In this document: positions 2,270-31,533 of the stretch, piece after piece
How positions within the stretch are numbered: the stretch's first letter is position 1
How the letters are laid out: every line of letters begins with the position of its first letter
Source of the DNA: Escherichia coli
Lineage (GTDB): Bacteria; Pseudomonadota; Gammaproteobacteria; Enterobacterales; Enterobacteriaceae
Direction: 5' to 3' (one strand)
Length of the DNA stretch: 64,000 nucleotides
NCBI RefSeq assembly: GCF_044647545.1
Contig: NZ_CP172818.1
Notes under the pieces: generated by a model
The model's database searches: none
Told to the model about the DNA's origin: nothing
The model's input: the letters and a program-made list of their open reading frames with translations, nothing else
Program-made: the position numbers and the translations under genes

Positions 2270-3487
2270 TGCCTTCCACGCCGATACGTTTCTTCACAGA
2301 CCAAAGTCATTTGCCTGTGAAACACTACAGCATTTAAATCCATTAGCCCGTGTCAAAGAGCGTGAAATGGCGCTTCCGGCGCATGTCGTTTCGTTTCAAT
2401 CTCTCTGGCACGTCAGAAGAGAATCATGAGCCGTAATAAATACATCCCTTACGGGAAAATGCTTCCTCTGTTGAGTGAAAAACGCCACGAAACCAATGCT
2501 AAAGATCGCCCTCACAGCCATTCAACACACTGAAAGACCTTGAGCGCTTAAAAAACTTCTCCAGAAGCCTGCTTTTCCCCGATCAAAAAGCGGGGACAGA
2601 AGATGCATTCGCTACCCGCAGGGCGTTAAGCTCGACAGGAAAACAGCCGTATTTTTCGCCGAAACTTGGCTGGATGCGCTACCGGAATAGCCGTCAGGTC
2701 ACGGGTGTGTGAAAAATGTCACTGTCAGCCAGTCCTGCGTAAGGTACATCAGTATCAGACTGAAAATGAAGTATCAACTCCGTTCACCCTTCAGCATCAA
2801 TGGTCGGCTGGAGCGCGGGCTAAACTCGCCACGCTGTCAGAGCAAGCTTTGACCTGAAACAGTTTTCAGAAAAACCAGAAGAAGCTGGCGAGACTTCAGC
2901 GACAGTTAAGCCGCAAGGTCAAATTCAGCAATAACTGGCAGAAGCAGAAACGCAAAATACAGCGACTGCATCCTGTACGCAAATATCCGCAGGGACTACC
3001 TTCACAAAGTCACAACGACCGTCAGCAAAAACCACGCAATGATAGTCATTGAGGATTTGAAGGTCAGCAACATGTCAAAGTCAGCAGCGGGTACGGTCAG
3101 CCAGCCGGGGCGCAATGTCCGGGCAAAATCAGGTTTAAACCGTTCGATACTGGATCAGGGCTGGTATGAAATGCGCCGCCAGCTTGAGTACAAGCACCTG
3201 GCGTGGCGGTCAGGTGCTTGCTGCCGCCAGCGTACACAAGCCAGCGTTGCGCGTGCTGTGGTCATACAGCGAAAGAAAATCGCCTGTCACAAAGTAAATT
3301 CAGATGCCAGCATGTGGATATACAGCGAACGCCGATGAAATGCCTCGTAACATTTTAGCGGCGGGGCACGCCGTTCTTGCCTGTGGAGAGATGGTGCATC
3401 AGCCGCTCGTTGAAGCAGGAACCCCCCGAAATGATTTAGCGACAGCCTGAACGTAGCAGGGATCCACGTCCTTCAGGGCGTGAGGAT
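2270..3487 (+). mobile_element. Partial IS200/IS605-family element (IS609-like) carrying only a decayed tnpB; no tnpA
   Basis: TnpB-like coding signal spread over three frames; putative right-end hairpin cacgtccttcagggcgtg at about 3465..3482, directly abutting the ydcO stop. Left boundary is uncertain. Confidence 0.6.
2520..3440 (+). pseudogene. insQ: tnpB (insQ-like) RNA-guided-nuclease-family accessory gene, disrupted by multiple frameshifts
   Basis: TnpB motifs are read in different forward frames: FNTLKDLERLKNF, IRYPQGVKLD, KLGWMRYRNSRQVTGV, QKNQKKLARLQRQLSRKVKFSNNWQKQKRKIQRLH, then ANIRRDYLHKVTTTVSKNHAMIVIEDLKVSNM (RuvC-like IVIEDL), then YTSQRCACCGHTAKENR and ACGYTANA...NILAAGHAVLACGEMV (Zn finger). 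No forward ORF over 100 aa exists here. Confidence 0.75.
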
Positions 3488-4663
3488 TCAATATCGGTTT
3501 CTGTCAGCGATTAAATTCAACACCACGTAACAAACGCCTCCGGCAATTAATCCCCAAAACGCAGAACCAATCCCGGCCAGCGTCAATCCACTTGCCGTTA
3601 CCAGAAATGCCACCACCGCCGCGTCGCGCTCACGCTCATTATGCAGCGCCTGATACAAACTGCCGCCAATGGTACTCAACAGCGCCAGACCTGCCAGCAT
3701 CTGGATCCAACTTACGGGCAGGGCAGCCATCATCCCGGTAATGGCACTACCAAACAGACCTGCGAGCAAATAGAAAATGCCTGCAACGGCAGCTGCCAGC
3801 CAACGTTGATCTTTATCCGGATGCGCTTCCGGGCTTTGGCAAATAGCCGCGGTGATTGCCGCAATACCGACGGAATAAACGCCGAAAGGGGAAAAAACCA
3901 GTGCCAGCAATCCAGTAAATACAATTAATGGCGAAACAGGAGCCGAATATCCGGCTGCTTTCATTGCTGCGATACCCGGTGCGTTTTGCGATGCCATCGT
4001 CACCAGAAAAAGGGGGAGTGCAACGCTCAGGCTGTGAGCAAACGAAAAATCAGGGCTAATATAAGTGGGGAGAACGGGTTTAAAGACAACATCAGTTGTG
4101 ACAACGTCACCTTGCGCGATAACGATCACGCCCCCAATAATCATCGCGGCAATTACCGCATAGCGCGGCGCAACGGCCCTGGTTGCCAGCCATACCAGCA
4201 ACATACTGCCACACAACGTAAATTGACCATCCAGGCTCGCAAACGCCTGTAAACCAAAGCGTAATAAAATCCCGGCAAGCATTGCCGCCGCAAGCGAGTG
4301 CGGAATAATGCGCATCAGACGAGCAAAGAGTCCCGTTATGCCGCAGAGGACTATTAACGCGTTGGTGACAATAAAAACGCCGATGGTTTCGTTAAGTGTT
4401 AGTCCCTGCAATCCGGTGACCAACAAAGCCGCGCCAGGCGTTGACCATGCGGTGAGAACAGGTACGCGATACCATAATGTCAGAGCCAGCGTACTGACGC
4501 CCATTGCCAGCCCCAGCGCCGTCATCCAGCCAGAGATTTGTGCAGTGGTGGCTCCGGCGACAATCGCTGCTTGCCAGATTATTGCCGCTGAACTGGCGTA
4601 GCCAATTAATACCGCCAGAAACCCCGCCAGTAGCGTGGGCGGAGGAATAGAAAACAGACGCAT
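3488..4663 (-). CDS. ydcO: BenE-family inner-membrane transporter YdcO
   Basis: ORF 3488..4786; start placed at the internal Met (MRLFSIPPP...) giving 391 aa; highly hydrophobic. Confidence 0.85.
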   Translation of the reverse strand: MRLFSIPPPTLLAGFLAVLIGYASSAAIIWQAAIVAGATTAQISGWMTALGLAMGVSTLALTLWYRVPVLTAWSTPGAALLVTGLQGLTLNETIGVFIVTNALIVLCGITGLFARLMRIIPHSLAAAMLAGILLRFGLQAFASLDGQFTLCGSMLLVWLATRAVAPRYAVIAAMIIGGVIVIAQGDVVTTDVVFKPVLPTYISPDFSFAHSLSVALPLFLVTMASQNAPGIAAMKAAGYSAPVSPLIVFTGLLALVFSPFGVYSVGIAAITAAICQSPEAHPDKDQRWLAAAVAGIFYLLAGLFGSAITGMMAALPVSWIQMLAGLALLSTIGGSLYQALHNERERDAAVVAFLVTASGLTLAGIGSAFWGLIAGGVCYVVLNLIADRNRY

Positions 4664-4754
4664 AGTCACCTCGTGCGTTATAGCATACAGGCACCGTAGC
4701 ATTTGTCCGTTATAACGCACAAGTGATAAACTTACGTTTTGCCGGAGGAGTCGC

Positions 4755-5291
4755 ATGGAAAATCTCGCTCGCTTTTTATCCACCACACTTAAACAACTAC
4801 GTCAGCAGCGCGGCTGGAGTCTTTCGCGACTGGCAGAAGCGACGGGCGTTTCTAAAGCGATGTTAGGGCAGATTGAGCGTAATGAATCCAGCCCGACGGT
4901 CGCGACATTATGGAAAATAGCCACCGGGTTGAACGTGCCATTTTCGACATTTATTTCTCCGCCGCAGTCCGCAACGCCTTCAGTTTATGATCCACAACAA
5001 CAGGCGATGGTGATCACTTCGCTGTTTCCTTATGATCCACAACTCTGCTTTGAACACTTCTCGATTCAGATGGCACCCGGTGCAATAAGCGAATCGACGC
5101 CCCATGAGAAGGGAGTAATCGAACATGTTGTCGTCATTGATGGGCAACTTGATCTGTGCGTTGATGGTGAATGGCAGAGCCTTAATTGTGGGGAAGGCGC
5201 TCGATTTGCTGCAGACGTCACGCATGTCTATTGTAATGGTGGGGAGCAAATCGTACATTTTCATTCCCTCATCCATTACCCACGCAGTTAA
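4755..5291 (+). CDS. ydcN: XRE-family HTH regulator with cupin domain, YdcN
   Basis: 178-aa ORF; HTH_XRE segment LRQQRGWSLSRLAEATGVSKAMLGQIERNESSPTVATLWKIA; divergent from ydcO. Confidence 0.9.
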   Translation: MENLARFLSTTLKQLRQQRGWSLSRLAEATGVSKAMLGQIERNESSPTVATLWKIATGLNVPFSTFISPPQSATPSVYDPQQQAMVITSLFPYDPQLCFEHFSIQMAPGAISESTPHEKGVIEHVVVIDGQLDLCVDGEWQSLNCGEGARFAADVTHVYCNGGEQIVHFHSLIHYPRS

Positions 5292-5363
5292 GCGGGAAAA
5301 CTATTTCGCAACGTCGCGCTTGTGGCTAAAATAGCCGCCATTTTTCAGCTACTGGATAAGAAT

Positions 5364-7325
5364 GTGACCGTATCTTCTCATCGACTTGAACTGTTAAGCC
5401 CGGCACGCGATGCCGCCATTGCCCGCGAAGCTATTTTGCACGGTGCCGATGCTGTTTATATCGGCGGCCCTGGTTTTGGTGCCCGTCATAATGCCAGTAA
5501 TAGCCTGAAAGATATTGCCGAGCTGGTGCCGTTTGCCCATCGTTATGGTGCAAAAATTTTCGTCACGCTTAACACAATTTTGCATGATGATGAGCTGGAA
5601 CCCGCGCAACGGCTGATTACTGACCTCTACCAGACCGGCGTCGATGCGCTGATTGTTCAGGATATGGGGATTCTGGAACTTGATATTCCGCCGATTGAAC
5701 TGCACGCCAGTACGCAGTGCGATATTCGCACAGTAGAAAAAGCGAAGTTCCTCTCTGATGTTGGCTTTACGCAGATTGTGCTGGCGCGAGAGCTGAATCT
5801 TGAGCAGATCCGCGCGATTCACCAGGCCACGGACGCGACCATTGAATTCTTTATTCATGGCGCACTGTGCGTGGCCTATTCGGGTCAGTGCTACATTTCT
5901 CATGCGCAAACAGGGCGTAGCGCCAACCGTGGCGATTGCTCGCAGGCGTGCCGTTTGCCATACACATTGAAAGACGATCAGGGGCGGGTGGTTTCCTATG
6001 AAAAACATCTGCTGTCGATGAAAGATAACGATCAGACTGCCAACCTCGGCGCGCTGATTGATGCTGGCGTACGCTCCTTCAAGATTGAAGGGCGTTACAA
6101 AGATATGAGCTACGTGAAGAATATCACCGCCCATTATCGCCAGATGCTGGATGCCATTATTGAAGAACGTGGCGATCTGACGCGTGCTTCATCAGGTCGT
6201 ACTGAACATTTCTTTGTTCCATCGACGGAAAAGACTTTCCACCGTGGTAGCACAGATTATTTTGTGAATGCCCGTAAAGGCGATATTGGCGCGTTCGATT
6301 CGCCGAAATTTATCGGCCTGCCGGTGGGCGAAGTATTGAAAGTAGCGAAAGATCATATTGATGTTGCCGTTACCGAGCCACTGGCAAATGGCGATGGCCT
6401 GAACGTGATGATTAAACGTGAAGTCGTCGGTTTTCGTGCCAATACGGTCGAGAAAACCGGAGAAAATCAGTACCGCGTCTGGCCCAATGAAATGCCAGCA
6501 GATTTGCACAAAATTCGCCCGCATCACCCACTAAACCGTAATCTTGATCATAACTGGCAGCAGGCACTGACAAAAACCTCCAGCGAACGTCGGGTGGCGG
6601 TAGACATTGAACTGGGCGGCTGGCAGGAACAACTGATTCTGACCCTCACCAGTGAAGAGGGTGTCAGCATCACGCATACGCTGGACGGGCAGTTCGACGA
6701 AGCCAATAACGCCGAAAAAGCAATGAACAATCTAAAGGATGGTCTGGCAAAACTGGGGCAAACCATCTATTACGCCCGCGATGTGCAAATTAATTTGCCG
6801 GGTGCGCTGTTTGTACCAAACAGTCTGTTAAACCAGTTCCGCCGTGAAGCCGCCGACATGCTGGATGCTGCACGTCTTGCCGGTTACCAGCGGGGCAGCC
6901 GTAAACCGGTTGCTGATCCTGCGCCGGTTTATCCGCAAACGCATCTGAGTTTCCTCGCGAACGTATACAACCAGAAAGCGCGTGAATTTTATCATCGCTA
7001 TGGTGTGCAACTGATTGACGCGGCGTATGAGGCACATGAAGAGAAGGGCGAAGTCCCGGTGATGATCACCAAGCATTGTCTGCGCTTTGCCTTCAATCTG
7101 TGCCCGAAACAGGCGAAAGGCAATATCAAAAGCTGGAAGGCGACGCCAATGCAACTGGTTAACGGCGATGAAGTATTAACGCTAAAGTTTGATTGCCGCC
7201 CATGCGAGATGCACGTCATTGGCAAAATCAAAAATCACATACTGAAAATGCCGTTACCGGGAAGCGTAGTGGCATCCGTAAGTCCGGATGATCTGCTGAA
7301 AACATTGCCGAAGCGAAAAGGGTAA
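5364..7325 (+). CDS. ydcP: Peptidase-U32-family protein YdcP (RlhA, 23S rRNA 5-hydroxycytidine synthase)
   Basis: ORF 5322..7325; GTG start at 5364 would give the 653-aa length I recall. Start is uncertain by 14 codons. Confidence 0.8.
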   Translation: MTVSSHRLELLSPARDAAIAREAILHGADAVYIGGPGFGARHNASNSLKDIAELVPFAHRYGAKIFVTLNTILHDDELEPAQRLITDLYQTGVDALIVQDMGILELDIPPIELHASTQCDIRTVEKAKFLSDVGFTQIVLARELNLEQIRAIHQATDATIEFFIHGALCVAYSGQCYISHAQTGRSANRGDCSQACRLPYTLKDDQGRVVSYEKHLLSMKDNDQTANLGALIDAGVRSFKIEGRYKDMSYVKNITAHYRQMLDAIIEERGDLTRASSGRTEHFFVPSTEKTFHRGSTDYFVNARKGDIGAFDSPKFIGLPVGEVLKVAKDHIDVAVTEPLANGDGLNVMIKREVVGFRANTVEKTGENQYRVWPNEMPADLHKIRPHHPLNRNLDHNWQQALTKTSSERRVAVDIELGGWQEQLILTLTSEEGVSITHTLDGQFDEANNAEKAMNNLKDGLAKLGQTIYYARDVQINLPGALFVPNSLLNQFRREAADMLDAARLAGYQRGSRKPVADPAPVYPQTHLSFLANVYNQKAREFYHRYGVQLIDAAYEAHEEKGEVPVMITKHCLRFAFNLCPKQAKGNIKSWKATPMQLVNGDEVLTLKFDCRPCEMHVIGKIKNHILKMPLPGSVVASVSPDDLLKTLPKRKG

Positions 7326-7370
7326 AACGTCAGTTTTCGGGTTACTCACCACTCATCAAATCTGCATGAT

Positions 7371-7412
7371 ATTGCCTGGCGGGTAAGGCGTCATGCCGCA
7401 TCCGGCAACAAA
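7371..7412. repeat. REP-like palindromic element
   Basis: gcctggcgggtaaggcgtcatgccgcatccggca resembles REP units; lies between the convergent ydcP and yncJ. Confidence 0.5.
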
Positions 7413-7416
7413 TGAC

Positions 7417-7647
7417 TCAACGCTGTCCCGCTTCTGGTTTGCGCGATTTTTGCCAGTAAAAATGCTCGCGCAAACCTTCCGCCGACTCTTCCGCCACAGC
7501 ACGCAATTCATCGCTGTCCGCTTCATGACGCAGCTGATGATCCACATTCTTTACCCACATAAATTCATGTCCTTTGTGCCCTGCCATGAGTTGTCCTGAG
7601 AACAGTGCACACGTTAATAAGACAACCGATAACGCCTTCGAAAACAT
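7417..7647 (-). CDS. yncJ: Small secreted protein YncJ
   Basis: 76-aa ORF with N-terminal signal peptide MFSKALSVVLLTCALFSGQLMA. Confidence 0.8.
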   Translation of the reverse strand: MFSKALSVVLLTCALFSGQLMAGHKGHEFMWVKNVDHQLRHEADSDELRAVAEESAEGLREHFYWQKSRKPEAGQR

Positions 7648-7868
7648 CCCGCCACCTTTTTCTAACCTTTTGCCGCTATGATGCCAATCGTTTCTTGAGG
7701 TTATTATTCAGTTTTGCAAATTAGCGCAAAGAAATTCTGGAATCTTCCTTCCTGATTTTGCATTGCATTCTGCCGTTGCGGCGATTTAGTGCTATTTTCG
7801 AGCAAATTACACACGGAGGTAAACACTAATGTTTACTTTGTTGATATACTCAGCGGCAGGGAGGCGAT

Positions 7869-8045
7869 GTGAAACAAAGCGAGTTCAGACGTTGGCTCGA
7901 ATCTCAGGGCGTCGATGTAGCGAATGGCAGCAACCATTTAAAACTGAGGTTTCATGGGAGGCGCAGTGTCATGCCGCGTCACCCCTGCGATGAGATTAAA
8001 GAACCATTGCGTAAAGCAATCCTGAAACAACTCGGTTTGAGTTAA
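7869..8045 (+). CDS. hicA: HicA mRNA-interferase toxin (type II TA)
   Basis: Hand-translated 58-aa GTG-start ORF (absent from the track): MKQSEFRRWLESQGVDVANGSNHLKLRFHGRRSVMPRHPCDEIKEPLRKAILKQLGLS; directly upstream of hicB. Confidence 0.85.
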   Translation: MKQSEFRRWLESQGVDVANGSNHLKLRFHGRRSVMPRHPCDEIKEPLRKAILKQLGLS

Positions 8046-8069
8046 TCGCCAATTAAAAAGGTTAATGAC

Positions 8070-8507
<438 letters not shown>

Positions 8508-8585
8508 TTACAGTTAACGAAAAGTTGTCATTTTTAACAACTGATATAGACTGCCGAATCATCTGCACATAATTACGATTCGATA

Positions 8586-9992
8586 ATGAAAAAATACCAG
8601 CAGCTTGCAGAACAATTACGCGAGCAGATTGCGTCGGGTATCTGGCAACCCGGCGATCGTTTGCCTTCGTTGCGTGACCAGGTGGCGCTTTCTGGCATGA
8701 GCTTTATGACCGTGAGCCATGCCTATCAGTTGCTCGAAAGTCAGGGATATATTATCGCGCGACCGCAGTCGGGTTATTACGTTGCGCCACAGGCAATAAA
8801 AATGCCGAAAGCGCCAGTCATTCCAGTCACTCGAGATGAAGCAGTCGATATCAACACCTATATTTTTGATATGTTGCAGGCCAGTCGCGATCCGTCGGTA
8901 GTTCCGTTTGCCTCGGCCTTTCCCGACCCGCGACTTTTCCCCCTCCAACAACTAAACCGCTCGCTGGCGCAGGTAAGCAAAACCGCCACGGCGATGAGCG
9001 TGATTGAAAACTTACCGCCAGGAAACGCAGAACTGCGTCAGGCTATTGCTCGTCGCTATGCCTTACAGGGCATCACCATTTCTCCTGATGAAATTGTCAT
9101 TACTGCCGGGGCGTTAGAGGCATTAAACCTCAGTTTGCAAGCGGTAACTGAACCGGGCGATTGGGTGATAGTAGAGAATCCTTGTTTCTACGGCGCGTTG
9201 CAGGCGCTGGAGCGGTTACGGCTGAAGGCGTTATCGGTGGCGACGGACGTTAAAGAAGGGATAGATCTTCAGGCGCTGGAACTGGCGTTGCAGGAGTATC
9301 CGGTGAAAGCGTGCTGGCTGATGACTAATAGCCAGAATCCACTCGGATTTACCTTAACACCGCAAAAAAAAGCACAACTGGTGGCGTTGCTCAATCAGTA
9401 CAACGTAACGCTGATTGAAGATGACGTATACAGCGAACTTTATTTTGGACGGGAAAAACCGCTGCCTGCGAAAGCGTGGGATCGCCACGATGGCGTTTTG
9501 CATTGCTCTTCGTTTTCGAAATGTCTGGTGCCTGGTTTTCGTATTGGTTGGGTCGCCGCCGGAAAACATGCACGTAAAATTCAACGCTTGCAGTTGATGA
9601 GTACGCTTTCCACCAGCTCACCGATGCAGCTTGCGCTGGTGGATTACCTTTCCACGCGCCGATACGACGCCCATCTTCGTCGCCTGCGTCGCCAGCTTGC
9701 GGAACGTAAACAACGTGCCTGGCAGGCACTGCTGCGTTATCTGCCTGCGGAAGTGAAAATTCATCATAATGACAGCGGTTATTTTCTCTGGCTGGAGCTC
9801 CCCGCGCCGTTAGATGCGGGCGAATTAAGCCTGGCAGCACTGACGCATCATATCAGTATTGCGCCGGGTAAAATGTTTTCTACCGGTGAAAACTGGTCAC
9901 GTTTTTTCCGTTTTAATACCGCGTGGCAGTGGGGAGAACGTGAAGAACAGGCGGTTAAACAATTAGGCACACTTATTCAAGAACGGCTGTAA
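8586..9992 (+). CDS. ydcR: MocR/GntR-family regulator with aminotransferase-like domain, YdcR
   Basis: 468 aa; N-terminal GntR HTH; PLP-lysine context SFSKCLVPGFRIGW. Confidence 0.9.
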   Translation: MKKYQQLAEQLREQIASGIWQPGDRLPSLRDQVALSGMSFMTVSHAYQLLESQGYIIARPQSGYYVAPQAIKMPKAPVIPVTRDEAVDINTYIFDMLQASRDPSVVPFASAFPDPRLFPLQQLNRSLAQVSKTATAMSVIENLPPGNAELRQAIARRYALQGITISPDEIVITAGALEALNLSLQAVTEPGDWVIVENPCFYGALQALERLRLKALSVATDVKEGIDLQALELALQEYPVKACWLMTNSQNPLGFTLTPQKKAQLVALLNQYNVTLIEDDVYSELYFGREKPLPAKAWDRHDGVLHCSSFSKCLVPGFRIGWVAAGKHARKIQRLQLMSTLSTSSPMQLALVDYLSTRRYDAHLRRLRRQLAERKQRAWQALLRYLPAEVKIHHNDSGYFLWLELPAPLDAGELSLAALTHHISIAPGKMFSTGENWSRFFRFNTAWQWGEREEQAVKQLGTLIQERL

Positions 9993-10236
9993 TAGCGTTT
10001 AATTTAATTCCTCTCAGGTTGGGTAATATGAATTTCGAATAGCAGTCATATTTCCTAACTCCTTGTCTATACTCCAGAAGATAACCTTACAGACGGCATA
10101 ATGCGCGGTAGCTCACAACCTGATTAAATTTTCTCAGGGGCGAAGGTGTGCCTGCAAGCCGCCGTCTATGGTTAAACAAGGAGATATTTTTACGGCACGG
10201 CGGCTGAACAATTAATTACGACAGGAGTAAGACTTT

Positions 10237-11382
10237 ATGAGCAAGACATTTGCCCGCAGCAGCCTGTGTGCGCTTACCATGACATTAATGACCGCCCACG
10301 CCGCCGAACCTCCCACAAATTTAGATAAACCGGAAGGGCGACTGGATATTATCGCCTGGCCGGGATACATCGAACGCGGACAAACTGATAAACAATACGA
10401 CTGGGTAACGCAATTCGAAAAAGAGACAGGCTGCGCGGTGAATGTGAAAACCGCCGCGACTTCCGATGAAATGGTCAGTCTGATGACCAAAGGGGGTTAC
10501 GATCTGGTTACGGCATCCGGCGATGCCTCGCTGCGCCTGATTATGGGCAAACGCGTGCAGCCGATTAATACCGCATTGATTCCCAACTGGAAAGCGCTCG
10601 ATCCGCGCGTGGTTAAAGGCGACTGGTTTAACGTTGGCGGCAAAGTTTACGGCACACCTTACCAATGGGGGCCGAACCTGCTGATGTACAACACTAAAAC
10701 CTTCCCGACGCCGCCGAATAGCTGGCAAGTGGTTTTTGTTGAGCAGAATCTGCCGGACGGCAAGAGCAATAAAGGCCGCGTTCAGGCTTATGATGGCCCT
10801 ATCTACATTGCGGACGCTGCGTTGTTCGTTAAAGCCACTCAGCCACAGTTGGGCATCAGCGATCCGTATCAACTCACCGAAGAACAGTACCAGGCGGTGC
10901 TGAAAGTGCTGCGCGATCAACATAGTTTGATCCATCGCTACTGGCATGACACTACCGTGCAAATGAGCGATTTCAAAAACGAGGGTGTGGTTGCTTCCAG
11001 TGCATGGCCCTATCAGGCCAACGCCCTGAAAGCCGAAGGCCAGCCTGTCGCTACCGTTTTCCCGAAGGAGGGCGTTACCGGTTGGGCTGATACCACCATG
11101 CTACATAGCGAAGCGAAACATCCGGTTTGCGCCTACAAATGGATGAACTGGTCATTAACCCCAAAAGTGCAGGGCGATGTAGCGGCCTGGTTTGGCTCGC
11201 TACCGGTAGTGCCGCAAGGGTGTAAAGCCAGTCCGTTATTAGGCGAGAAAGGTTGTGAAACAAACGGTTTTAACTATTTCGATAAAATCGCCTTCTGGAA
11301 AACGCCTATCGCAGAAGGGGGCAAGTTTGTTCCCTACAGTCGCTGGACGCAGGATTACATTGCCATTATGGGTGGTCGCTAA
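10237..11382 (+). CDS. ydcS: ABC transporter periplasmic substrate-binding protein YdcS (polyamine-type)
   Basis: 381 aa; signal peptide ending AHA; first gene of ydcSTUV. Confidence 0.9.
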   Translation: MSKTFARSSLCALTMTLMTAHAAEPPTNLDKPEGRLDIIAWPGYIERGQTDKQYDWVTQFEKETGCAVNVKTAATSDEMVSLMTKGGYDLVTASGDASLRLIMGKRVQPINTALIPNWKALDPRVVKGDWFNVGGKVYGTPYQWGPNLLMYNTKTFPTPPNSWQVVFVEQNLPDGKSNKGRVQAYDGPIYIADAALFVKATQPQLGISDPYQLTEEQYQAVLKVLRDQHSLIHRYWHDTTVQMSDFKNEGVVASSAWPYQANALKAEGQPVATVFPKEGVTGWADTTMLHSEAKHPVCAYKWMNWSLTPKVQGDVAAWFGSLPVVPQGCKASPLLGEKGCETNGFNYFDKIAFWKTPIAEGGKFVPYSRWTQDYIAIMGGR

Positions 11383-11399
11383 CTTCGCTGGGGTGTTTT

Positions 11400-12413
11400 A
11401 TGACGTACGCAGTGGAGTTTGACAACGTCTCACGGTTGTACGGTGACGTGCGCGCAGTAGATGGCGTCAGTATTGCGATAAAAGATGGTGAGTTCTTCTC
11501 TATGCTGGGGCCGTCCGGTTCCGGCAAAACCACCTGCCTGCGCCTGATTGCTGGATTCGAACAACTTTCCGGCGGGGCTATCTCTATCTTTGGTAAACCC
11601 GCCAGCAATCTGCCACCGTGGGAGCGGGACGTGAATACTGTCTTCCAGGACTACGCGCTATTTCCGCATATGTCGATTCTTGACAACGTCGCCTACGGGC
11701 TGATGGTCAAAGGCGTGGATAAAAAACAGCGGCATGCGATGGCGCAAGAGGCGCTGGAGAAAGTGGCGCTGGGTTTTGTTCAGCAACGTAAACCGTCACA
11801 ACTTTCTGGTGGTCAGCGCCAGCGGGTTGCTATCGCCAGAGCATTGGTGAATGAACCGCGTGTGTTGTTGCTGGATGAACCGCTCGGCGCACTGGATCTC
11901 AAATTGCGTGAGCAGATGCAACTGGAACTGAAAAAGCTGCAACAGTCTCTCGGTATCACTTTTATCTTCGTTACCCACGATCAGGGCGAAGCGTTATCGA
12001 TGTCCGATCGTGTGGCGGTTTTCAATAATGGACGCATTGAGCAGGTCGATTCCCCGCGTGATCTCTATATGCGCCCGCGCACGCCGTTTGTTGCCGGGTT
12101 CGTCGGGACATCGAATGTTTTTGATGCACTGATGGCAGACAAACTTTGTGGCATGACGGGAAGCTTCGCCCTGCGACCGGAACATATCCGCTTCAACATC
12201 CCCGGCGAAGTGCAGGCTAATGGCACGATCCAGGCGGTGCAGTATCAGGGCGCGGCGACCCGTTTTGAACTGAGACTGAACGGCGGTGAAAAACTGCTGG
12301 TGAGTCAGGCCAATATGACAGGCGAAGAACTGCCCGCCACACTCACGCCCGGAAAACAGGTGATGGTTTCCTGGTCGCGTGATGTGATGGTACCGCTGGT
12401 TGAGGAGAGGTGA
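11400..12413 (+). CDS. ydcT: ABC transporter ATP-binding protein YdcT
   Basis: 337 aa; Walker A GPSGSGKTT, ABC signature LSGGQRQRVAIARAL, Walker B LLLDEP. Confidence 0.93.
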   Translation: MTYAVEFDNVSRLYGDVRAVDGVSIAIKDGEFFSMLGPSGSGKTTCLRLIAGFEQLSGGAISIFGKPASNLPPWERDVNTVFQDYALFPHMSILDNVAYGLMVKGVDKKQRHAMAQEALEKVALGFVQQRKPSQLSGGQRQRVAIARALVNEPRVLLLDEPLGALDLKLREQMQLELKKLQQSLGITFIFVTHDQGEALSMSDRVAVFNNGRIEQVDSPRDLYMRPRTPFVAGFVGTSNVFDALMADKLCGMTGSFALRPEHIRFNIPGEVQANGTIQAVQYQGAATRFELRLNGGEKLLVSQANMTGEELPATLTPGKQVMVSWSRDVMVPLVEER

Positions 12414-14139: not shown

Positions 14140-14160
14140 CCACTGATACAGGAATATGCT

Positions 14161-15663: not shown

Positions 15664-15681
15664 GCGTGCAAAATCACTACA

Positions 15682-18647: not shown

Positions 18648-18655
18648 AGATACGA

Positions 18656-19511: not shown

Positions 19512-19517
19512 AGTAAG

Positions 19518-19537
19518 TGCCCGGCAAATACCGGGCA
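19518..19537. terminator. Hairpin between convergent mcbR and yncD
   Basis: gcccgg-caaata-ccgggc stem-loop. Confidence 0.4.
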
Positions 19538-19546
19538 TCAAGGTAA

Positions 19547-21649: not shown

Positions 21650-21781
21650 GAAAAAAGCCAGGTTAAGAATGGGAAAACGCCGTCATGGTAATAAAATTGT
21701 AAATTTATGGAAAACGAAACGGCACGATACGTTAAGTAATTGAGAAAATTGTAGTCGTAACGGCAAGAAATGCTCCACATT

Positions 21782-21804
21782 TGATAAAATAATGATTACC
21801 ATTC
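21782..21804. promoter_or_regulatory. Putative Fur box in the yncD-yncE divergent promoter region
   Basis: tgataaaataatgattaccattc matches about 13 of 15 core positions of the Fur consensus GATAATGATAATCATTATC; roughly 90 bp upstream of yncE. Confidence 0.55.
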
Positions 21805-21890
21805 CCATTTATAACAAAAGCGTAACGATGATTACGCTTAGCGAAGCATTGTGAAGCAGCAAAAATATCGGTTCATCAAAGGGAGTCGTC

Positions 21891-22952
21891 ATGCATTTAC
21901 GTCATCTGTTTTCATCGCGCCTGCGTGGTTCATTACTGTTAGGTTCATTGCTTGTTGCTTCATCATTCAGTACGCAGGCCGCAGAAGAAATGCTGCGTAA
22001 AGCGGTAGGTAAAGGTGCCTACGAAATGGCTTATAGCCAGCAAGAAAACGCGCTGTGGCTCGCCACTTCGCAAAGCCGCAAAGTGGATAAAGGCGGCGTG
22101 GTTTATCGTCTTGATCCGGTTACTCTGGAAGTGACGCAGGCGATCCATAACGATCTCAAGCCGTTTGGTGCCACCATCAATAACACGACTCAGACGTTGT
22201 GGTTTGGTAACACTGTAAACAGCGCGGTCACGGCGATAGATGCCAAAACGGGCGAAGTGAAAGGCCGTCTGGTGCTGGATGATCGTAAGCGCACGGAAGA
22301 GGTGCGCCCGCTTCAACCGCGTGAGCTGGTAGCTGATGATGCCACGAACACCGTTTACATCACTGGTATTGGTAAAGAGAGCGTGATTTGGGTCGTTGAT
22401 GGCGAGAATATCAAACTGAAAACCGCCATCCAGAACACCGGTAAAATGAGTACCGGTTTAGCGCTGGATAGCAAAGGCAAACGTCTTTACACCACTAACG
22501 CTGACGGCGAATTGATTACCATCGACACCGCCGACAATAAAATCCTCAGCCGTAAAAAGCTGCTGGATGACGACAAAGAGCACTTCTTTATCAACATCAG
22601 CCTTGATACCACCAATCAGCGTGCATTTATCACCGATTCTAAAGCGGCAGAAGTGTTAGTGGTTGATACCCGTAATGGCAATATTCTTGCGAAGGTTGCG
22701 GCACCGGAATCACTGGCTGTGCTGTTTAACCCAGCGCGTAATGAAGCCTACGTGACGCATCGTCAGGCAGGTAAAGTCAGTGTGATTGACGCGAAAAGCT
22801 ATAAAGTGGTGAAAACGTTCGATACGCCGACTCATCCGAACAGCCTGGCGCTGTCTGCCGATGGCAAAACGCTGTATGTCAGTGTGAAACAAAAATCCAC
22901 TAAACAGCAGGAAGCTACCCAGCCGGACGATGTGATTCGTATTGCGCTGTAA
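21891..22952 (+). CDS. yncE: Periplasmic beta-propeller (PQQ-like repeat) protein YncE
   Basis: 353-aa ORF with signal peptide. Confidence 0.9.
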   Translation: MHLRHLFSSRLRGSLLLGSLLVASSFSTQAAEEMLRKAVGKGAYEMAYSQQENALWLATSQSRKVDKGGVVYRLDPVTLEVTQAIHNDLKPFGATINNTTQTLWFGNTVNSAVTAIDAKTGEVKGRLVLDDRKRTEEVRPLQPRELVADDATNTVYITGIGKESVIWVVDGENIKLKTAIQNTGKMSTGLALDSKGKRLYTTNADGELITIDTADNKILSRKKLLDDDKEHFFINISLDTTNQRAFITDSKAAEVLVVDTRNGNILAKVAAPESLAVLFNPARNEAYVTHRQAGKVSVIDAKSYKVVKTFDTPTHPNSLALSADGKTLYVSVKQKSTKQQEATQPDDVIRIAL

Positions 22953-23035
22953 TAGATATGGCGAGGGTGAAAACGGAGAGACTTGCCTGACTTTTATCAC
23001 GCCGTATCCGGCACCTTCGTCAGTAATTTGAATTT

Positions 23036-23058
23036 GCCCGGCACGCAGCCGGGCAATT
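23036..23058. terminator. Hairpin between convergent yncE and ansP
   Basis: tgcccggc-acgca-gccgggca followed by ATTTTGCAATT. Confidence 0.5.
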
Positions 23059-23064
23059 TTGCAA

Positions 23065-24564
23065 TTAACTCGCCGTTTCAGGTTTAAACACAATTTCCTG
23101 TTTTTCTTCATCTTCCTCGACGACTGGCGCAGTGCTGTGAATTTCAGCAACGCGTTTGCGCACACCAAACCAGCCTATAACCAGCAGAATACCGATAATC
23201 GGCAGCGCCGCGATAGTATAAGTCCCGTTCGGGTAATCGAACGCCATCAGCACCAGAACACTCAGTAAAAACAGTAATGTCAGCCAGGAAGTGAAGGGCG
23301 CGCCAGGCAGTTTAAAACTGACATCCGCTGCTTTGCCTTCTTTAATCGCTTTACGCAGGCGCATCTGGCACACGATGATAAACGCCCATGAAGCGATGAT
23401 TCCCAGCGACGCGAAGTTCAACACAATCTCAAATACGCGCGACGGCACCAGATAGTTGAGGAATACGCCGACGACATACACAACCAGTGTCGCCAGAATC
23501 CCGGCATACGGCACATGCTGACGACTCATTTTCGCCATAAAACTCGGTGCGGAACCGCCCATCGCCATTGAGCGCAGAATGCGTCCGGTGCAGTACAGAC
23601 CTGAATTCAGGCTGGAGAGGGCAGCGGTCAGCACCACAATGTTCATAATGCTGCCGATATATGGCACACCCAGTTTAGAGAAAAACGTCACGAACGGACT
23701 TTGCCCCGCCTGATACGCGCTCCACGGCAATAACATAACCAGCAACACCACGGAGCCGACGTAAAACAGGCCAATACGCCAAATCACACTGTTAATGGCT
23801 TTAGGCACCATGGTCTGCGGATCTTTACATTCTCCGGCAGCTGTCCCCACCATTTCAATGGAGGCAAAAGCAAACACTACGCCCTGAATCAACACCAGCG
23901 CAGGCAGCAAACCGTGGGGGAAGAAGCCGCCATTATCGGTGATTAAATGAAAGCCAGTGGTGTTGCCATCCAGCGGCTGACCACTACCGAGGAACACTGT
24001 ACCCACGACCAAAAAGGTCACAATGGCGAGCACTTTAATAAGCGCAAACCAGAACTCCATCTCCGCAAACCATTTCACACCGATCATATTCATGGTGCCA
24101 ACGATGGTAAGTGCAGCGAGCGCAAAGACCCACTGCGGCACGCCGCCAAACGCACCCCAGTAATGCATATACAGAGCGACGGCGGTAATATCAACAATCC
24201 CCGTCATCGCCCAGTTGATGAAGTACATCCAGCCAGCAACATAAGCGGCTTTCTCACCCAAAAACTCACGGGCATAAGAGACAAAACTGCCACTGGAAGG
24301 GCGGTGTAGCACCAGCTCACCCAATGCACGCAGAATAAAAAACGAAAACAAGCCACAAATTAAATAAACCAGTGCCAGTGCTGGACCCGCCATTTGCAGT
24401 CGGGCTCCTGCACCTAAAAACAAGCCGGTGCCAATCGCGCCGCCAATGGCGATCATCTGTACCTGGCGATTGCCCATCGCTTTGTGATACCCCTCTTCGT
24501 GGGCATTAAGCCAGCGGCGTTTCGCGGCGTGTTGATCTGAAGTGTCGGTGTCGTGTTTACTCAT
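23065..24564 (-). CDS. ansP: L-asparagine permease AnsP (APC family)
   Basis: Track ORF 23065..24615; internal start MSKHDTDTSD (GGGAGAG RBS) gives 499 aa; about 12 TM segments. Confidence 0.92.
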   Translation of the reverse strand: MSKHDTDTSDQHAAKRRWLNAHEEGYHKAMGNRQVQMIAIGGAIGTGLFLGAGARLQMAGPALALVYLICGLFSFFILRALGELVLHRPSSGSFVSYAREFLGEKAAYVAGWMYFINWAMTGIVDITAVALYMHYWGAFGGVPQWVFALAALTIVGTMNMIGVKWFAEMEFWFALIKVLAIVTFLVVGTVFLGSGQPLDGNTTGFHLITDNGGFFPHGLLPALVLIQGVVFAFASIEMVGTAAGECKDPQTMVPKAINSVIWRIGLFYVGSVVLLVMLLPWSAYQAGQSPFVTFFSKLGVPYIGSIMNIVVLTAALSSLNSGLYCTGRILRSMAMGGSAPSFMAKMSRQHVPYAGILATLVVYVVGVFLNYLVPSRVFEIVLNFASLGIIASWAFIIVCQMRLRKAIKEGKAADVSFKLPGAPFTSWLTLLFLLSVLVLMAFDYPNGTYTIAALPIIGILLVIGWFGVRKRVAEIHSTAPVVEEDEEKQEIVFKPETAS

Positions 24565-24830
24565 TGCTCTCCCTGATTGCTTTAATGAAAAAGTCATATA
24601 AGTTGCCATGAACAATGTTTATTCATCCTGGCGATGATAGTTATCACCATTATTCTTTATGGGTATAAAACTATCGGCGCAGCATCCTACCCGTTATCGA
24701 TAAACGATGCAAAACATCCCCTTACAATCCTGAAGGGGAATAATACAACTGACGAAAAAATGACAAATCCTTTTGCTGGTTAACCTGTGTACTGTCCTAC
24801 ACTTAATCTTTAAAAGATTGTGAGGGGCAT

Positions 24831-25448
24831 ATGATTAAGGTGTATGGCGTACCCGGATGGGGCTCTACAATCAGTGAGCTGATGCTAACACTGGCTGATA
24901 TTCCTTATCAGTTCTTTGATGTCAGTGGTTTTGACCACGAGGGAACTTCACGCGAGTTATTGAAAACCCTGAACCCGTTGTGTCAGATTCCGACACTGGC
25001 GCTGGAAAATGACGAGATTATGACGGAGACAGCGGCGATTGCATTGATGGTTCTCGATCGTCGCCCGGACCTTGCGCCACCGGTTGGGCGCGCCGAACGT
25101 CAGCAGTTTCAACGGCTATTGGTCTGGCTGGTTGCTAATGTCTATCCAACATTCACTTTCGCCGATTACCCTGAGCGTTGGGCTCCTGACGCACCTGAAC
25201 AGTTAAAGAAGAATGTTATTGAATATCGAAAATCGCTTTATATCTGGTTGAATTCGCAGCTCACTGCTGAACCTTATGCGTTTGGTGAGCAACTAACGCT
25301 GGTGGACTGTTATCTTTGCACTATGCGCACATGGGGGCCTGGGCATGAATGGTTTCAGGATAATGCCACGAATATCAGTGCGATTGCTGATGCTGTATGT
25401 CAGTTACCGAAATTACAAGAAGTATTAAAAAGGAATGAAATTATTTGA
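24831..25448 (+). CDS. yncG: Glutathione-S-transferase-like protein YncG
   Basis: 205-aa ORF. Confidence 0.85.
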   Translation: MIKVYGVPGWGSTISELMLTLADIPYQFFDVSGFDHEGTSRELLKTLNPLCQIPTLALENDEIMTETAAIALMVLDRRPDLAPPVGRAERQQFQRLLVWLVANVYPTFTFADYPERWAPDAPEQLKKNVIEYRKSLYIWLNSQLTAEPYAFGEQLTLVDCYLCTMRTWGPGHEWFQDNATNISAIADAVCQLPKLQEVLKRNEII

Positions 25449-25523
25449 GTGGGATACCAGAAGATTATGTTATTTATTATTCAGTAACTTTATCCACAAT
25501 GATGGGCGTAATTAATTAAATTC

Positions 25524-25736
25524 ATGTTATGTTTTTTAATTTATATCACTCTCCCTTTCATTCAGCTTGTCTATTTCATTTCCTCTGAAAAGAAACTAAC
25601 TATTCACATTGTGCAGATGTTTCAGTTGTTATCACAGGTATTCTATAATCTCAAAATGTTTTTAATGATGGATATGCTCGGAGTTGGAGATGCAATTAAT
25701 ATTAATACAAATAAAAATATCCGGCAGGTATGCTAA
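25524..25736 (+). CDS. yncH: Small hypothetical protein YncH (doubtful)
   Basis: 70-aa ORF in a very AT-rich stretch; no recognisable motif. Confidence 0.4.
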   Translation: MLCFLIYITLPFIQLVYFISSEKKLTIHIVQMFQLLSQVFYNLKMFLMMDMLGVGDAININTNKNIRQVC

Positions 25737-26474
25737 AAGGATAAATGGCGTTCTCTGTATTTATTCGCAATTATCTGTAGGACAAATATGGAGAGCTTGA
25801 TGAGTCAGAGCTAAAACAGCAATTGATTAATAAACATGTTGATTTATTCAAGAAAATGGATGTATTTTAAATATTGATTCTTAATATAACCTAATCAATA
25901 GATTATCACGTGAGAGCTGCACATTATTGGAGGGGCAGGGGAAAACACCATTTTGGGAACAATGCATCAGGTACTCTTACCACTGAAGCAAGATCATCCG
26001 GGCACCAGGTGGTGGTGCAGTGCTTTGGAAATGGTCCCCTCGGGGGAGTTGTCATTATTTTCTATGCTATTTGCTTATTATATTCATCAGGTGAATTTAA
26101 TAAATTCCTAATTTGAAATATCCACTATTAAGCCAGTGTTTAACGACGTTAAGATGGCAATGTGCAGATCATGTTATCAGGGTGGGGCGGTAGCGTATAT
26201 TCCTTATACAAACCATCATTCATTTCAATGATTGTTATTGAATTATTTATTGTTGTGAATAAAAAGACATTATGAATATTGGTTTGACTTTGCATATCAG
26301 GTTTTTTATTACTCGCTGTAATGTACGAGCCTGTCGTGAATAACGTCGAGAACCCATCCGTTGCGTTTGTGATTATTTTGTTGACTAAACAGACACCCGT
26401 TTCTCTGAAGTAAAATCCCAGACTAAATCATCACATAACCATGACATTTTTCTGATATTCCCCGGTAACGCCAG

Positions 26475-28108
26475 ATGTCGACTCGCTTATCCACCCTCAG
26501 CCATACCAGTGAAGGCCACCGCGTGTCGGTCCACTACGGCTATGACGATAAAGGCCGCCTGACCGGCGAACGCCAGACGGTGGAGAACCCGGAGACGGGG
26601 GAACTGCTGTGGCACCATGAGACCGGACATGCGTACAACGAACAGGGGCTGGCAAACCGCGTCACGCCGGACAGTCTGCCGCCGGTGGAGTGGCTGACCT
26701 ACGGCAGCGGCTATCTTGCGGGCATGAAGCTGGGCGGGACGCCGCTGCTGGAGTTCACGCGCGACCGCCTGCACCGTGAGACGGTGCGCAGCTTCGGCAG
26801 CATGGCAGGCAGTAATGCCGCATATAAACTGACCAGCACATACACCCCCGCAGGCCAGTTACAGAGCCAGCACCTGAACAGCCTGGTGTATGACCGTGAC
26901 TACGGGTGGAATGACAACGGCGACCTGGTGCGCATCAGCGGCCCGCGACAGACGCGGGAATACGGCTACAGCGCCACGGGCAGGCTGGAGAGTGTGCGCA
27001 CCCTCGCACCAGACCTGGACATCCGCATCCCGTATGCCACGGACCCGGCGGGCAACCGGCTGCCGGACCCGGAGCTGCACCCGGACAGTACACTCACAGT
27101 GTGGCCGGATAACCGCATCGCGGAGGATGCGCACTATGTCTACCGCCACGATGAATACGGCAGGCTGACGGAGAAGACGGACCGCATCCCGGCGGGTGTG
27201 ATACGGACGGACGACGAGCGGACCCACCACTACCACTACGACAGCCAGCACCGCCTGGTGTTCTACACGCGGATACAGCATGGCGAGCCACTGGTCGAGA
27301 GCCGCTACCTCTACGACCCGCTGGGACGGCGAATGGCAAAACGGGTCTGGCGGCGGGAGCGTGACCTGACGGGGTGGATGTCGCTGTCGCGTAAACCGGA
27401 GGTGACGTGGTATGGCTGGGACGGAGACAGGCTGACGACGGTGCAGACTGACACCACACGTATCCAGACGGTATACGAGCCGGGAAGCTTCACGCCGCTC
27501 ATCCGGGTCGAGACAGAGAACGGCGAGCGGGAAAAAGCGCAGCGGCGCAGCCTGGCAGAGACGCTCCAGCAGGAAGGGAGTGAGAACGGCCACGGCGTGG
27601 TGTTCCCGGCTGAACTGGTGCGGCTGCTGGACAGGCTGGAGGAAGAAATCCGGGCAGACCGCGTGAGCAGTGAAAGCCGGGCGTGGCTTGCGCAGTGCGG
27701 GCTGACGGTGGAGCAACTGGCCAGACAGGTGGAGCCGGAATACACACCGGCGCGAAAAGTTCATTTTTACCACTGCGACCACCGGGGCCTGCCGCTGGCG
27801 CTCATCAGCGAAGACGGCAATACGGCGTGGCGCGGGGAGTATGATGAATGGGGCAACCAGCTTAATGAGGAGAACCCGCATCACCTGCACCAGCCGTACC
27901 GTCTGCCAGGGCAGCAGTATGATAAGGGAGTCGGGCTGGTACTTATAACCGTCACCGGTACTACGATCCGTTGCAGGGGCGGTATATCACCCGGGACCCG
28001 ATTGGGTTGAGAGGTGGATATGGATATGTATCAGTATCCGTTGAATCCCATACAAGTGATAGACCCAATGGGGTTAGATGCGATTGAGAATATCATAATA
28101 TCAGGCTA
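26475..28108 (+). pseudogene. rhsE: Rhs element remnant (rhsE): C-terminal part of the Rhs core with two frameshifts and a 10-aa tip
   Basis: YD repeats ([24 protein letters not shown]). Near 27935 the conserved end [25 protein letters not shown] is in another frame; frame returns for [16 protein letters not shown] (PxxxxDPxGL) followed by only [10 protein letters not shown] before the stop. GC-rich core against AT-rich flanks. Confidence 0.85.
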
Positions 28109-29200
28109 ATTAATTTATGCCGTATCTGGTGTACCTGGATTGATTGCTGCAAACAGCATTACTAACAGTGCTTACCAGTTCGGTTATGATATGGATGCTA
28201 TTGTTGGCGGAAGCTCATAATGGGGCCGCCGATGCAATGAGACATATCGTCACTTGATGTGTCGAATGACTAAGACATTTGGATCAAACAATAGCTGACG
28301 TGATAGGAAAAATCATGAGGCGGCAGGGATAACAAGGTCAGCCAGCTAAAGAAAAGTAATCATGGATCTAAAAAATAACACTGTCGGTATTGCTTGTGGC
28401 GATTTTTGGCCAAATGTAGCGATGATGTATTGTAAAATATAACACTGGGAAAACTCTTCGGGTTAGATGGTATAAAAGCAGATAACTCCAATAAAAACAA
28501 AGCAAGGGAGTTTCAGACGCTTCAAATTATTAGAGGCAAACTTGTCATTTTTTTTAATTACCCTTTGTTTATTTGTTGTTTACAATCTTCTGGGTTTGAT
28601 AACAATTCAAATTCTTGATATTGTCATTTTATGGACATAAATACCTAAAGAGCGTTGAGATATCTTTCTGAAAAAAATATTATTTATAAAATAATTAATG
28701 ACCAAAAAATTAGTAGAGGGAATGGTCATTTTATAAGTATAATGGTTAATAATTACAGGACGCACTGTGGAGTGGTTGATAAACTTAATTTTTTCAATGA
28801 TATTCTTTATAGCGTGCGATTAAAAAACATTAAAGCAAACTTGCAGAATATGGAGTTCTGCGCTAAAAAATAATGCGTATTTTAGTGATAAAAACAAGAA
28901 GGCTAGTTATAAAATAATTAATTATGGAGAACTATCACGATGTTGATTATTATGATAACAATTTGAAAAATGAAGCTTTTTGACTGGATTGGTAAATGGT
29001 CATAATGAACAACACCAGAAAGTAGAAAAATATAAAATACATACAGAAGATACTAGAAGCAAGGGACGGGCAGGGCAATATTATGAAAATTGTGATGTAA
29101 AATCACGATTTTCATCTTGGCTTGAACGCTAGCAGGCTATTAAAATTTAACCTTTGGATAAATGGAAAAAGATAAAAAAGGACCAAGTGATATTTTAAGT
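28109..29200 (+). other. AT-rich region of decayed short ORFs downstream of the Rhs tip
   Basis: Fragments such as VSGVPGLIAANSITNSAYQFGYDMDAIVGGSS and the 72-aa ORF 28655..28873; nothing intact. Interpretation as toxin/immunity remnants is inference from Rhs locus architecture. Confidence 0.35.
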
Positions 29201-29204
29201 TTGC

Positions 29205-30135
29205 TTGATTATATTTAGCTATCTCTATATACGACAACAAGGAAGCTTAAACATAAATCTATCCGCTATTTTGTTTCTCACCGTATGTGAGAATTGCGAG
29301 GCCCATGAGTGGCAGGAAATTGAAGATTTTGGACATGAAAGACTTGAATGGCTAAAGAAATATGGTGATTTTGATAATGGGATTGCGGTCGATGACACCA
29401 TTGCACGCGTTGTGAGTAACATTGACAGTTTGGCCTTTGGAAGATGTTTATTGAATGGATGCAGGAGTGCCATGAAATCACTGATGGTGAAATTATAGCA
29501 ATAGATGGAAAGACCATAAGAGGCTCCTTTGATAAGGAAAGAAAAGGAGCAATCCATATGGTGAGTGCATTCTCAACCAAATGGTGTTGTACTCCGGCAG
29601 GCGAAACGGAAGCCAAAAGTAATGAGATTACAGCCATTCCACAGTTGCTTAACCTACTGTATTTAAAGAAAATTTTGATAACCATCGACGCTATGGGCTG
29701 TCAGAAAGATATCGCTTCGAAGATTAAAAGATAAAAAAGCAGATTATCTTCTGGCAGAAAAGGCAATCAGGGGAAATTACATCATGCATTCGAGGAAAAA
29801 TTTCCTGTAAATGTGTTTTCTAATTATAGGCGATTCGTTTAGTACGCAGGAGATAGTCATGGAAGAAAAGAAACACGTTTTCATATTGTAGTAACGTAAC
29901 GCCTGAACTTTTGTGATTTTGAATTCAATGGAAGGGATTAAAAAAGCTTTGTGTAGCATTGTCATTCAGGCAGAAGAAAGAAGATAAATCAGCAGAAGGT
30001 GTAAGCATCCGATACTATATTTCATCAAAGGATATGGATGCTAAAGAATTTGCACATGCTATCAGAGCGCACTGGCTGATCGAGCACAGTCTTCATTGGG
30101 TGTTAGATGTAAAAATGAATGAAGATGCCGCCGGA
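29205..30135 (+). pseudogene. yncI: H-repeat-associated (ISAs1-family) transposase remnant (yncI-like), multiply disrupted
   Basis: Fragments ([38 protein letters not shown]; IIAIDGKTIRGSFDKERKGAIHMVSAFS...; C-terminal [20 protein letters not shown]) parallel the adjacent ydcC copy but are broken by stops and frameshifts. Confidence 0.7.
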
Positions 30136-30397
30136 TAAGAAGAGGAAACGCAGCCTAAATAATATCTGGAATAAAGAAGATGGCACTGAATTTATTAAGA
30201 GATTGCAAAGACATTAAGGGTGAAGAGGAAAAGAAAGAAGGCTGCGTTAAACACAGGGAAAGATCATCAGAAGTTCACTTTTTGTACTAAATAATTCGCA
30301 TTTTATGTTTAAAAATTGAGATATTCCTCATTACCTGAAGCTGTTTTTTATTGCTTATACATGATCAAATACTCCTTACATAATTAAGGAGAACAAA

Positions 30398-31533
30398 ATG
30401 GAACTTAAAAAATTGATGGAACATATTTCTATTATCCCCGATTACAGACAAGCCTGGAAAGTGGAGCATAAATTATCGGACATTCTACTGTTGACTATTT
30501 GTGCCGTTATTTCTGGTGCAGAAGGCTGGGAAGATATAGAGGATTTTGGGGAAACACATCTCGATTTTTTGAAGCAATATGGTGATTTTGAAAATGGTAT
30601 TCCTGTTCACGATACCATTGCCAGAGTTGTATCCTGTATCAGTCCTGCAAAATTTCACGAGTGCTTTATTAACTGGATGCGTGACTGCCATTCTTCAGAT
30701 GATAAAGACGTTATTGCAATTGATGGAAAAACGCTCCGGCACTCTTATGACAAGAGTCGCCGCAGGGGAGCGATTCATGTCATTAGTGCGTTCTCAACAA
30801 TGCACAGTCTGGTCATCGGACAGATCAGGACGGATGAGAAATCTAATGAGATTACAGCTATCCCTGAACTTCTTTACATGTTGGACATTAAAGGAAAAAT
30901 CATCACAACTGATGCGATGGGTTGCCAGAAAGATATTGCAGAGAAGATACAAAAACAGGGAGGTGATTATTTATTCGCTGAAAATGAAACCAGGGGCGGC
31001 TAAATAAAGCCTTCGAGGAAAAATTTCCGCTGAAAGAATTAAATAATCCAGAGCATGACAGTTACGCAATGAGTGAAAAGAGTCACGGCAGAGAAGAAAT
31101 CCGTCTTCACATTGTTTGCGATGTCCCTGATGAACTTATTGATTTCACGTTTGAATGGAAAGGTCTGAAGAAATTATGCGTGGCAGTCTCCTTTCGGTCA
31201 ATAATAGCAGAACAAAAGAAAGAGCCAGAAATGACGGTCAGATATTATATCAGTTCTGCTGATTTAACCGCAGAGAAGTTCGCCACAGCAATCCGAAACC
31301 ACTGGCACGTGGAGAATAAGCTGCACTGGCGTCTGGACGTGGTAATGAATGAAGACGACTGCAAAATAAGAAGAGGAAATGCAGCAGAATTATTTTCAGG
31401 GATACGGCACATCGCTATTGATATTTTGACGAATGATAAGGTATTCAAGGCAGGGTTAAGACGTAAGATGCGAAAAGCAGTCATGGACAGAAACTATCTG
31501 GCGTCAGTCCTTGCGGGGAGCGGGCTTTCGTAA
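30398..31533 (+). pseudogene. ydcC: H-repeat-associated (ISAs1-family) transposase YdcC, split by a single frameshift near 30995
   Basis: ORFs 30398..31003 (201 aa) and 31069..31533 (154 aa) are the N- and C-halves; the joining segment [31 protein letters not shown] reads in a different frame. Confidence 0.8.

Follow-up and report, generated by a model that had tools for sequence, protein, structure and literature searches.

Clustered frameshifts in an ST648-lineage Escherichia coli record probably reflect artefacts of sequence reconstruction

Organization of the region

The stretch of DNA analysed here, referred to as the window, is 64,000 nucleotides of the Escherichia coli contig NZ_CP172818.1, and covers the region from tehB-ydcL through rhsE-ydcC-pptA to narZ-fdn-ddp. 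A first-pass annotation of the window had reported broken reading frames in three genes: insQ/tnpB, which encodes an RNA-guided endonuclease and is part of an IS609 element, the Rhs gene rhsE, and the ISAs1-family transposase gene ydcC. All three frames are indeed broken, as seen both in the open reading frames (ORFs) and in alignments with related genomes. The record represents an ST648-lineage E. coli with damage in three blocks that are private to this record, and these are referred to as Blocks A, B and C.

Over ~58 kb the window aligns at 99.99-100% identity with complete ST648 genomes such as MS6198 (NZ_CP015834), and over this entire backbone the window differs from MS6198 by one single nucleotide polymorphism (SNP), two junction mismatches and one indel. 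Positions 1-2052, 30254-31648 and 31801-44306 are 100% identical to MS6198, 3492-26491 has one mismatch and no gaps in 23,000 bp, and 44613-63316 has two mismatches at one junction together with one 1-bp gap. At least 12 further ST648 genomes are equally close to the window over stretches of 16 kb, 4 kb and 1.7 kb. Every housekeeping coding sequence (CDS) of the window is intact, in agreement with the first-pass annotation, and the ORFs from ydcO to yncH have the coordinates of the CDS annotated in MS6198. Indels occur once per 16-33 bp in the damaged blocks versus once per ~58,000 bp elsewhere in the window, and the excess is far beyond chance. The sole backbone SNP is at position 6761, where the window has A and MS6198 has T; the window base is also the K-12 base, and the difference may be either a change private to MS6198 or a template allele of the kind considered below.

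Block A: IS609 at ydcL-ydcO

Block A (positions 2053-3491, plus strand) is an IS609 copy of the IS200/IS605 family located between ydcL and ydcO, and is 1439 bp long relative to ~1748 bp for intact copies. Its left end with the tnpA remnant (2053-2310, minus strand, with the end of tnpA mapped to 2310) is the most eroded part, and is followed by insQ/tnpB (2317-3438, plus strand), the coordinates of which are mapped from the annotated insQ of a reference copy described below. In MS6198 the ydcL-ydcO site is empty, with GGCGCTTTTTAT followed directly by TATCGG, such that all 1439 bases are extra in the window. The block is flanked by GGCGCTTTTTAT and TATCGGTTTC, which are also the junctions that K-12-type genomes have around their IS609 copy, and IS609 is carried at this site by K-12 and 3248 other genomes. 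ST648 genomes have their own IS609, with a tnpA remnant and an intact insQ, at yjfZ-ytfB and not at ydcL-ydcO. The copy used as the ST648 reference is that at the yjfZ-ytfB locus of WP5-S18-ESBL-08 (L008, 2125-3872), which has an annotated insQ.

Alignment of window positions 2220-3491 with the L008 allele shows 99 bases deleted in 80 events, with no insertions and no substitutions. All 1272 retained bases are identical to the ST648 allele, and the segment is thus homologous to annotated IS609 and insQ at the nucleotide level. The missing bases are not a random sample, as 87 of the 99 are G or T (expected fraction 0.48, binomial p = 1.5e-16), and they are spatially graded, with 36 deletions per 200 bp on the left of the segment, decreasing to 2 in its middle. 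Runs of two or more hold 52 of the 99 deleted bases (53%), and the background for G and T is 45%; homopolymer errors were considered as a cause of Block A and were rejected on this comparison. Carry-over of K-12 sequence was likewise rejected as its source, because the block has 29 mismatches to K-12 and none to the ST648 allele.

The first-pass annotation counted six or more frame breaks in tnpB; the gene is broken as described but the number is too low, with 65 deletion events covering 75 nt of the insQ/tnpB CDS, a sequence of 1197 nt in L008 that is reduced to 1122 nt in the window. There is no intact TnpB frame, and the two longest remaining ORF fragments have 63 and 99 residues. An exact-product look-up with the 99-residue fragment found no identical protein on record.

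The IS609 copy as a whole is short by ~309 of 1748 bp. Its left part is represented by just 167 bp (2053-2219) for 377 bp of the intact element, a loss of 56% of the bases, and 12 of the 92 G residues are kept (87% lost). When an alignment that tolerates deletions is used, window positions 2053-2190 score 76.7 against the left part of the L001 IS609 copy, versus 37.0 +/- 3.8 for shuffled sequence, and by this measure the segment is still recognisable as IS609 reduced by deletion.

Searches for changes private to the window used megablast and blastn sensitivity against 5,426 complete genomes. None of these has the window's version of Block A, the best matches being 92.7% for the tnpB part and 88.6% for the left part. 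For comparison, a natural pair of IS609 copies, that of K-12 and that of 1517k, differs by 20 substitutions and no indels. We know of no mutational process that would give 80 deletions that come with neither substitutions nor insertions, favour certain bases on one strand and form a spatial gradient, and the substitution-dominated, unbiased spectrum of natural mutation is absent from Block A. If the deletions were nonetheless real, a lineage-specific process would have to erode newly acquired IS609 and Rhs DNA by G/T-biased single-base deletions, graded from one end and without substitutions. Such erosion would amount to a prokaryotic counterpart of repeat-induced inactivation, although we regard it as extremely improbable.

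Block B: rhsE', ydcD and yncI'

Window positions 26492-30253 have the K-12-type arrangement of a truncated rhsE', ydcD and yncI'. rhsE' (26487-28533, plus strand, mapped from a K-12-like annotation) is an N-terminally truncated Rhs core with a C-terminal extension, ydcD (28517-29005, plus strand) is a small Rhs-associated ORF, and yncI' (29187-30312, plus strand) is an ISAs1-family pseudogene that is a natural pseudogene already in K-12. In MS6198 the place of rhsE'-ydcD-yncI' is taken by vgrG, an intact ISEc1 (ISAs1-like) transposase gene and a hypothetical gene (L003, 26557-31089).

The Rhs core at 26492-27917 has no mismatches to K-12 rhsE', and between 27157 and 27908 the window has the K-12 state at all 70 of the sites that separate K-12 from the AH01 copy; full-length rhsE cores of other genomes are also 99.9% identical. 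The rhsE' truncation junction at 26491 is found in one piece only in laboratory strains of K-12 size among the matches listed. The rhs allele changes over between 27908 and 27918, and the error-laden Block B starts at precisely this point.

Block B (27918-30130) includes the 3' extension of rhsE, ydcD, the ydcD-yncI' spacer and yncI'. rhsE' is clean up to 27917 but then has 21 indel events between 27928 and 28511, instead of the two closely spaced compensating shifts that were first reported. Nor is the damage restricted to mobile-element genes, as had been proposed. Relative to K-12-like sequence there are 15 indel events in ydcD and 10 in the spacer, in addition to 21 in yncI' that are private and come on top of its natural lesions, and the intergenic segment at 31649-31800 (Block C, see below) is affected too. 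In total Block B has ~65-70 indel events and no fewer substitutions. All are private to the window, and they include swaps of neighbouring bases and small local scrambles.

A clean version of this 2.3-kb block of rhsE extension, ydcD and yncI' is present at 99% identity or above in 2354 other records, whereas the window's version is in none of the 5,426 complete genomes, among which the best match is 94.1%. Natural rhs copies differ in quite another way: those of K-12 and AH01, at different loci and in different strains, are separated by 124 substitutions and 3 indels in 4.4 kb. Reads from ISAs1 paralogues recruited to the wrong place were considered as an origin of the Block B changes and rejected, the paralogues being 59% identical and matching 10 of 90 private states. 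No protein identical to the 511-residue RhsE fragment was found on record by exact-product look-up.

An inherited frameshift in ydcC and a private block beside it

The third gene reported as broken presents a different picture. ydcC (30398-31533, plus strand) has one frameshift, as the first-pass annotation had it, in the form of a 1-bp deletion at 30981 (GCGGTAAAAGG to GCTG-AAAATG) in a context that is not a homopolymer. The frameshift is real and inherited, because positions 30254-31648 are base-for-base the same in MS6198, in which ydcC is annotated as frameshifted; 11 further ST648 genomes have the same alignment score over this stretch. Each listed ST648 genome contains four places that match the gene, and the neighbouring ISEc1 copy of MS6198 shares 98% identity with it. 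Judged by these alignments, the ydcC frameshift is a true inherited pseudogene lesion of an ordinary kind, and the only real lesion among the reported frame breaks. Comparison with related complete genomes, which had been suggested as a check, gives two answers: the ydcC lesion is shared with MS6198 and, going by alignment score, with 11 further ST648 genomes, whereas the lesions of Blocks A and B are shared with no close relative and are in none of the 5,426 genomes.

Relaxed selection on mobile and Rhs genes was one of the two explanations that the first-pass annotation put forward, and it does account for ydcC. The hit genes are dispensable, and both yncI' and rhsE' are natural pseudogenes in K-12. 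As an account of tnpB and of rhsE, ydcD and yncI', genuine pseudogene decay is nonetheless very improbable, as the damage there is private, dominated by indels, G/T-biased and graded, with 80 deletion events against no substitutions or insertions and a bias at p = 1.5e-16 in Block A. None of the changes is common to any of the 5,426 genomes. The flanks are 100% identical to those of relatives and there has thus been no time for decay, natural copies of these elements have substitution-to-indel ratios of 41:1 or more, and the damage in intergenic DNA and ydcD is no lighter than in the mobile genes.

Just downstream of ydcC, Block C (31649-31800) is an intergenic segment within the ydcC-pptA spacer, and in alignment with MS6198 it has 18 substitutions and 3 deletions. 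The changes turn interrupted A/T runs into pure ones, for example TTGATGTTTTCTT to TTTTTTTTTTTTT. They are private to the window, because all 12 of the listed ST648 genomes have the same 98.7% identity to it across the block. Block C occupies the central part of a 280-bp segment missing from K-12.

K-12-like structure at the damaged sites

At four of the four structural differences larger than 600 bp between K-12 and ST648, the window follows K-12. Two of these are the IS609 insertion and the junction at which rhsE' is truncated, and the other two are absences, of 642 bp and of 1538 bp. The latter two form a pair of K-12-type junctions in the LRR/porin region (44296-44621), at which 642 bp and 1538 bp of the listed ST648 genomes are gone; here the window is gaplessly collinear with K-12 (yddK/yddL) and yet has ST648 alleles. 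The 642 bp are missing from inside the LRR gene and the 1538 bp from the ompC-like porin gene, and the junctions are at microhomologies of 11 bp and 9 bp. The fused LRR ORF of 444 residues (43248-44582, minus strand) has no identical protein on record by exact-product look-up; the 96-residue YddL fragment is ubiquitous and hence uninformative, and the loci that it returned are only ~97% identical to the window.

Blocks A, B and C and a 1-bp slip at 50879 are all situated at structural differences between ST648 and K-12. The slip (AAAA to AAA) is the sole backbone indel and is a deletion relative to both MS6198 and K-12. It is at the edge of a 323-bp segment that is present only in K-12 and is flanked by a 34-bp imperfect repeat.

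The K-12-like structure bears on an explanation in which the structures are real, and the errors are those of long reads left uncorrected in a hybrid assembly made de novo, short-read polishing having failed in repeats or in places of poor coverage. Errors that linger in repeats after short-read polishing are well documented, as in the Polypolish paper (PMC8812927), IS609, Rhs and ISAs1 are multi-copy families, Block C is AT-rich and of low complexity, and the Block B spectrum mixes insertions, deletions and substitutions. We nevertheless consider this explanation unlikely. It needs four real K-12-type features in a backbone that is 100% ST648, and none of these is in the ST648 genomes examined. 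Block A, with no substitutions or insertions in 1272 bases, a strand-specific G/T bias and no enrichment in homopolymers, is unlike known long-read error profiles. The multi-copy ydcC is perfect and the dirty segments include the rhsE extension, ydcD and an intergenic one, which speaks against unpolished repeats as a simple cause, even though IS609 and yncI' belong to repeat families. The suggestion of homopolymer-type sequencing error in repeated DNA, the second of the explanations first offered, is thus upheld in that the blocks are artefact, but the errors are neither of homopolymer type nor do they simply track repeat content.

Corruption after assembly or synthetic generation, for example through edits, the handling of files, or the filling of segments that had no data by imputation or a model, can be weighed against the same locations. 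The pure base dropping of Block A and the A/T smoothing of Block C do resemble algorithmic output more than chemistry. The blocks coincide with biologically meaningful structural breakpoints, however, which is not expected of random corruption, and we think that an origin of this kind is improbable.

Reconstruction on a K-12-like template

Blocks A to C are almost certainly artefacts of some kind and not mutations. With ~1 substitution in the 58-kb backbone, the more than 150 indels in 3.6 kb did not accumulate naturally. The dense frame breaks are probably errors of a templated or gap-filled reconstruction on a K-12-like reference, and this is the most economical reading of where the blocks are located. 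The record of an ST648-lineage strain would have been assembled using a K-12-like template, or have had its gaps filled from one, although the kind of pipeline is something that we infer from the pattern of damage. Wherever strain and template are collinear the consensus would be essentially perfect, and where they differ in structure there would be no proper read support and sequence of poor quality would be written out. The poorly supported places would then be the IS609 at ydcL-ydcO, the rhsE'-ydcD-yncI' block, and the 280-bp segment that only the strain has. Block A would have arisen by dropping positions, in a G/T-biased and graded manner, from an otherwise correct ST648 IS609 allele, Block B would be noisy output with indels, swaps and substitutions, and Block C would be a product of the smoothing of A/T runs.

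Several observations do not sit easily with a K-12-like template. The 280-bp insertion and the 323-bp deletion relative to K-12 follow the strain instead, and the reconstruction therefore cannot have been a simple fixed-coordinate consensus. The tnpB block has the ST648 IS609 allele (29 mismatches to K-12 and none to L008), and Block B has a non-K-12 allele at seven of seven informative sites between 27918 and 29119, neither of which can be explained by plain carry-over from a template. K-12-like structure is also common in E. coli at some of these sites, such as IS609 at ydcL-ydcO. Finally, we know of no consensus tool that preferentially removes G and T, and can name no sequencing chemistry that does so; Sanger read tails, masking by quality in the Illumina green channel, and missed nanopore or PacBio pulses are candidate origins of this loss.

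Relationship to other reconstructed and natural sequences

A templated origin of the blocks is in keeping with reference-guided reconstructions of bacterial genomes, in which the consensus is perfect where sample and template are collinear, the structure of the template is kept at large insertions and deletions, regions for which the sample yields no orthologous reads contain junk and apparent frameshifts, and apparent pseudogenes cluster in accessory and mobile DNA. The window differs from these in that the dropped bases are G/T-biased, in that Block A has no substitutions, and in that part of the fill is the strain's own paralogous allele and not that of the template. There is also a likeness to the residual repeat errors after polishing described in the Polypolish paper (PMC8812927), in that a few IS, Rhs and ISAs1 blocks stand in otherwise perfect sequence; relative to that account, the errors in the window are not in homopolymer length, and they affect the rhsE extension and ydcD but spare the repeated ydcC.

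Natural IS, Rhs and H-repeat pseudogenes of E. coli, such as rhsE' and yncI' of K-12 and ydcC of ST648, involve the same loci and families, and the ydcC lesion in the window is a bona fide member of this class. Natural copies mostly have substitutions, and their lesions are common to relatives; Blocks A and B have neither property.

Nothing here is novel, and the original observation is real but was undercounted and mis-scoped. Its value is as a quality flag on the record. If the sequence were used at face value, it would attribute to an ST648 strain false pseudogenes (tnpB, rhsE and ydcD), an IS609 insertion and an rhsE-type locus that are likewise false, and two spurious deletions in the LRR and porin genes, and errors of this type would distort surveys of pangenomes, pseudogenes and mobile elements. 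The pattern also provides a rule for recognizing such artefacts without recourse to reads: frameshifts that are clustered, private to one record, dominated by indels, and situated at structural differences from a common reference strain should be suspected of being artefacts.

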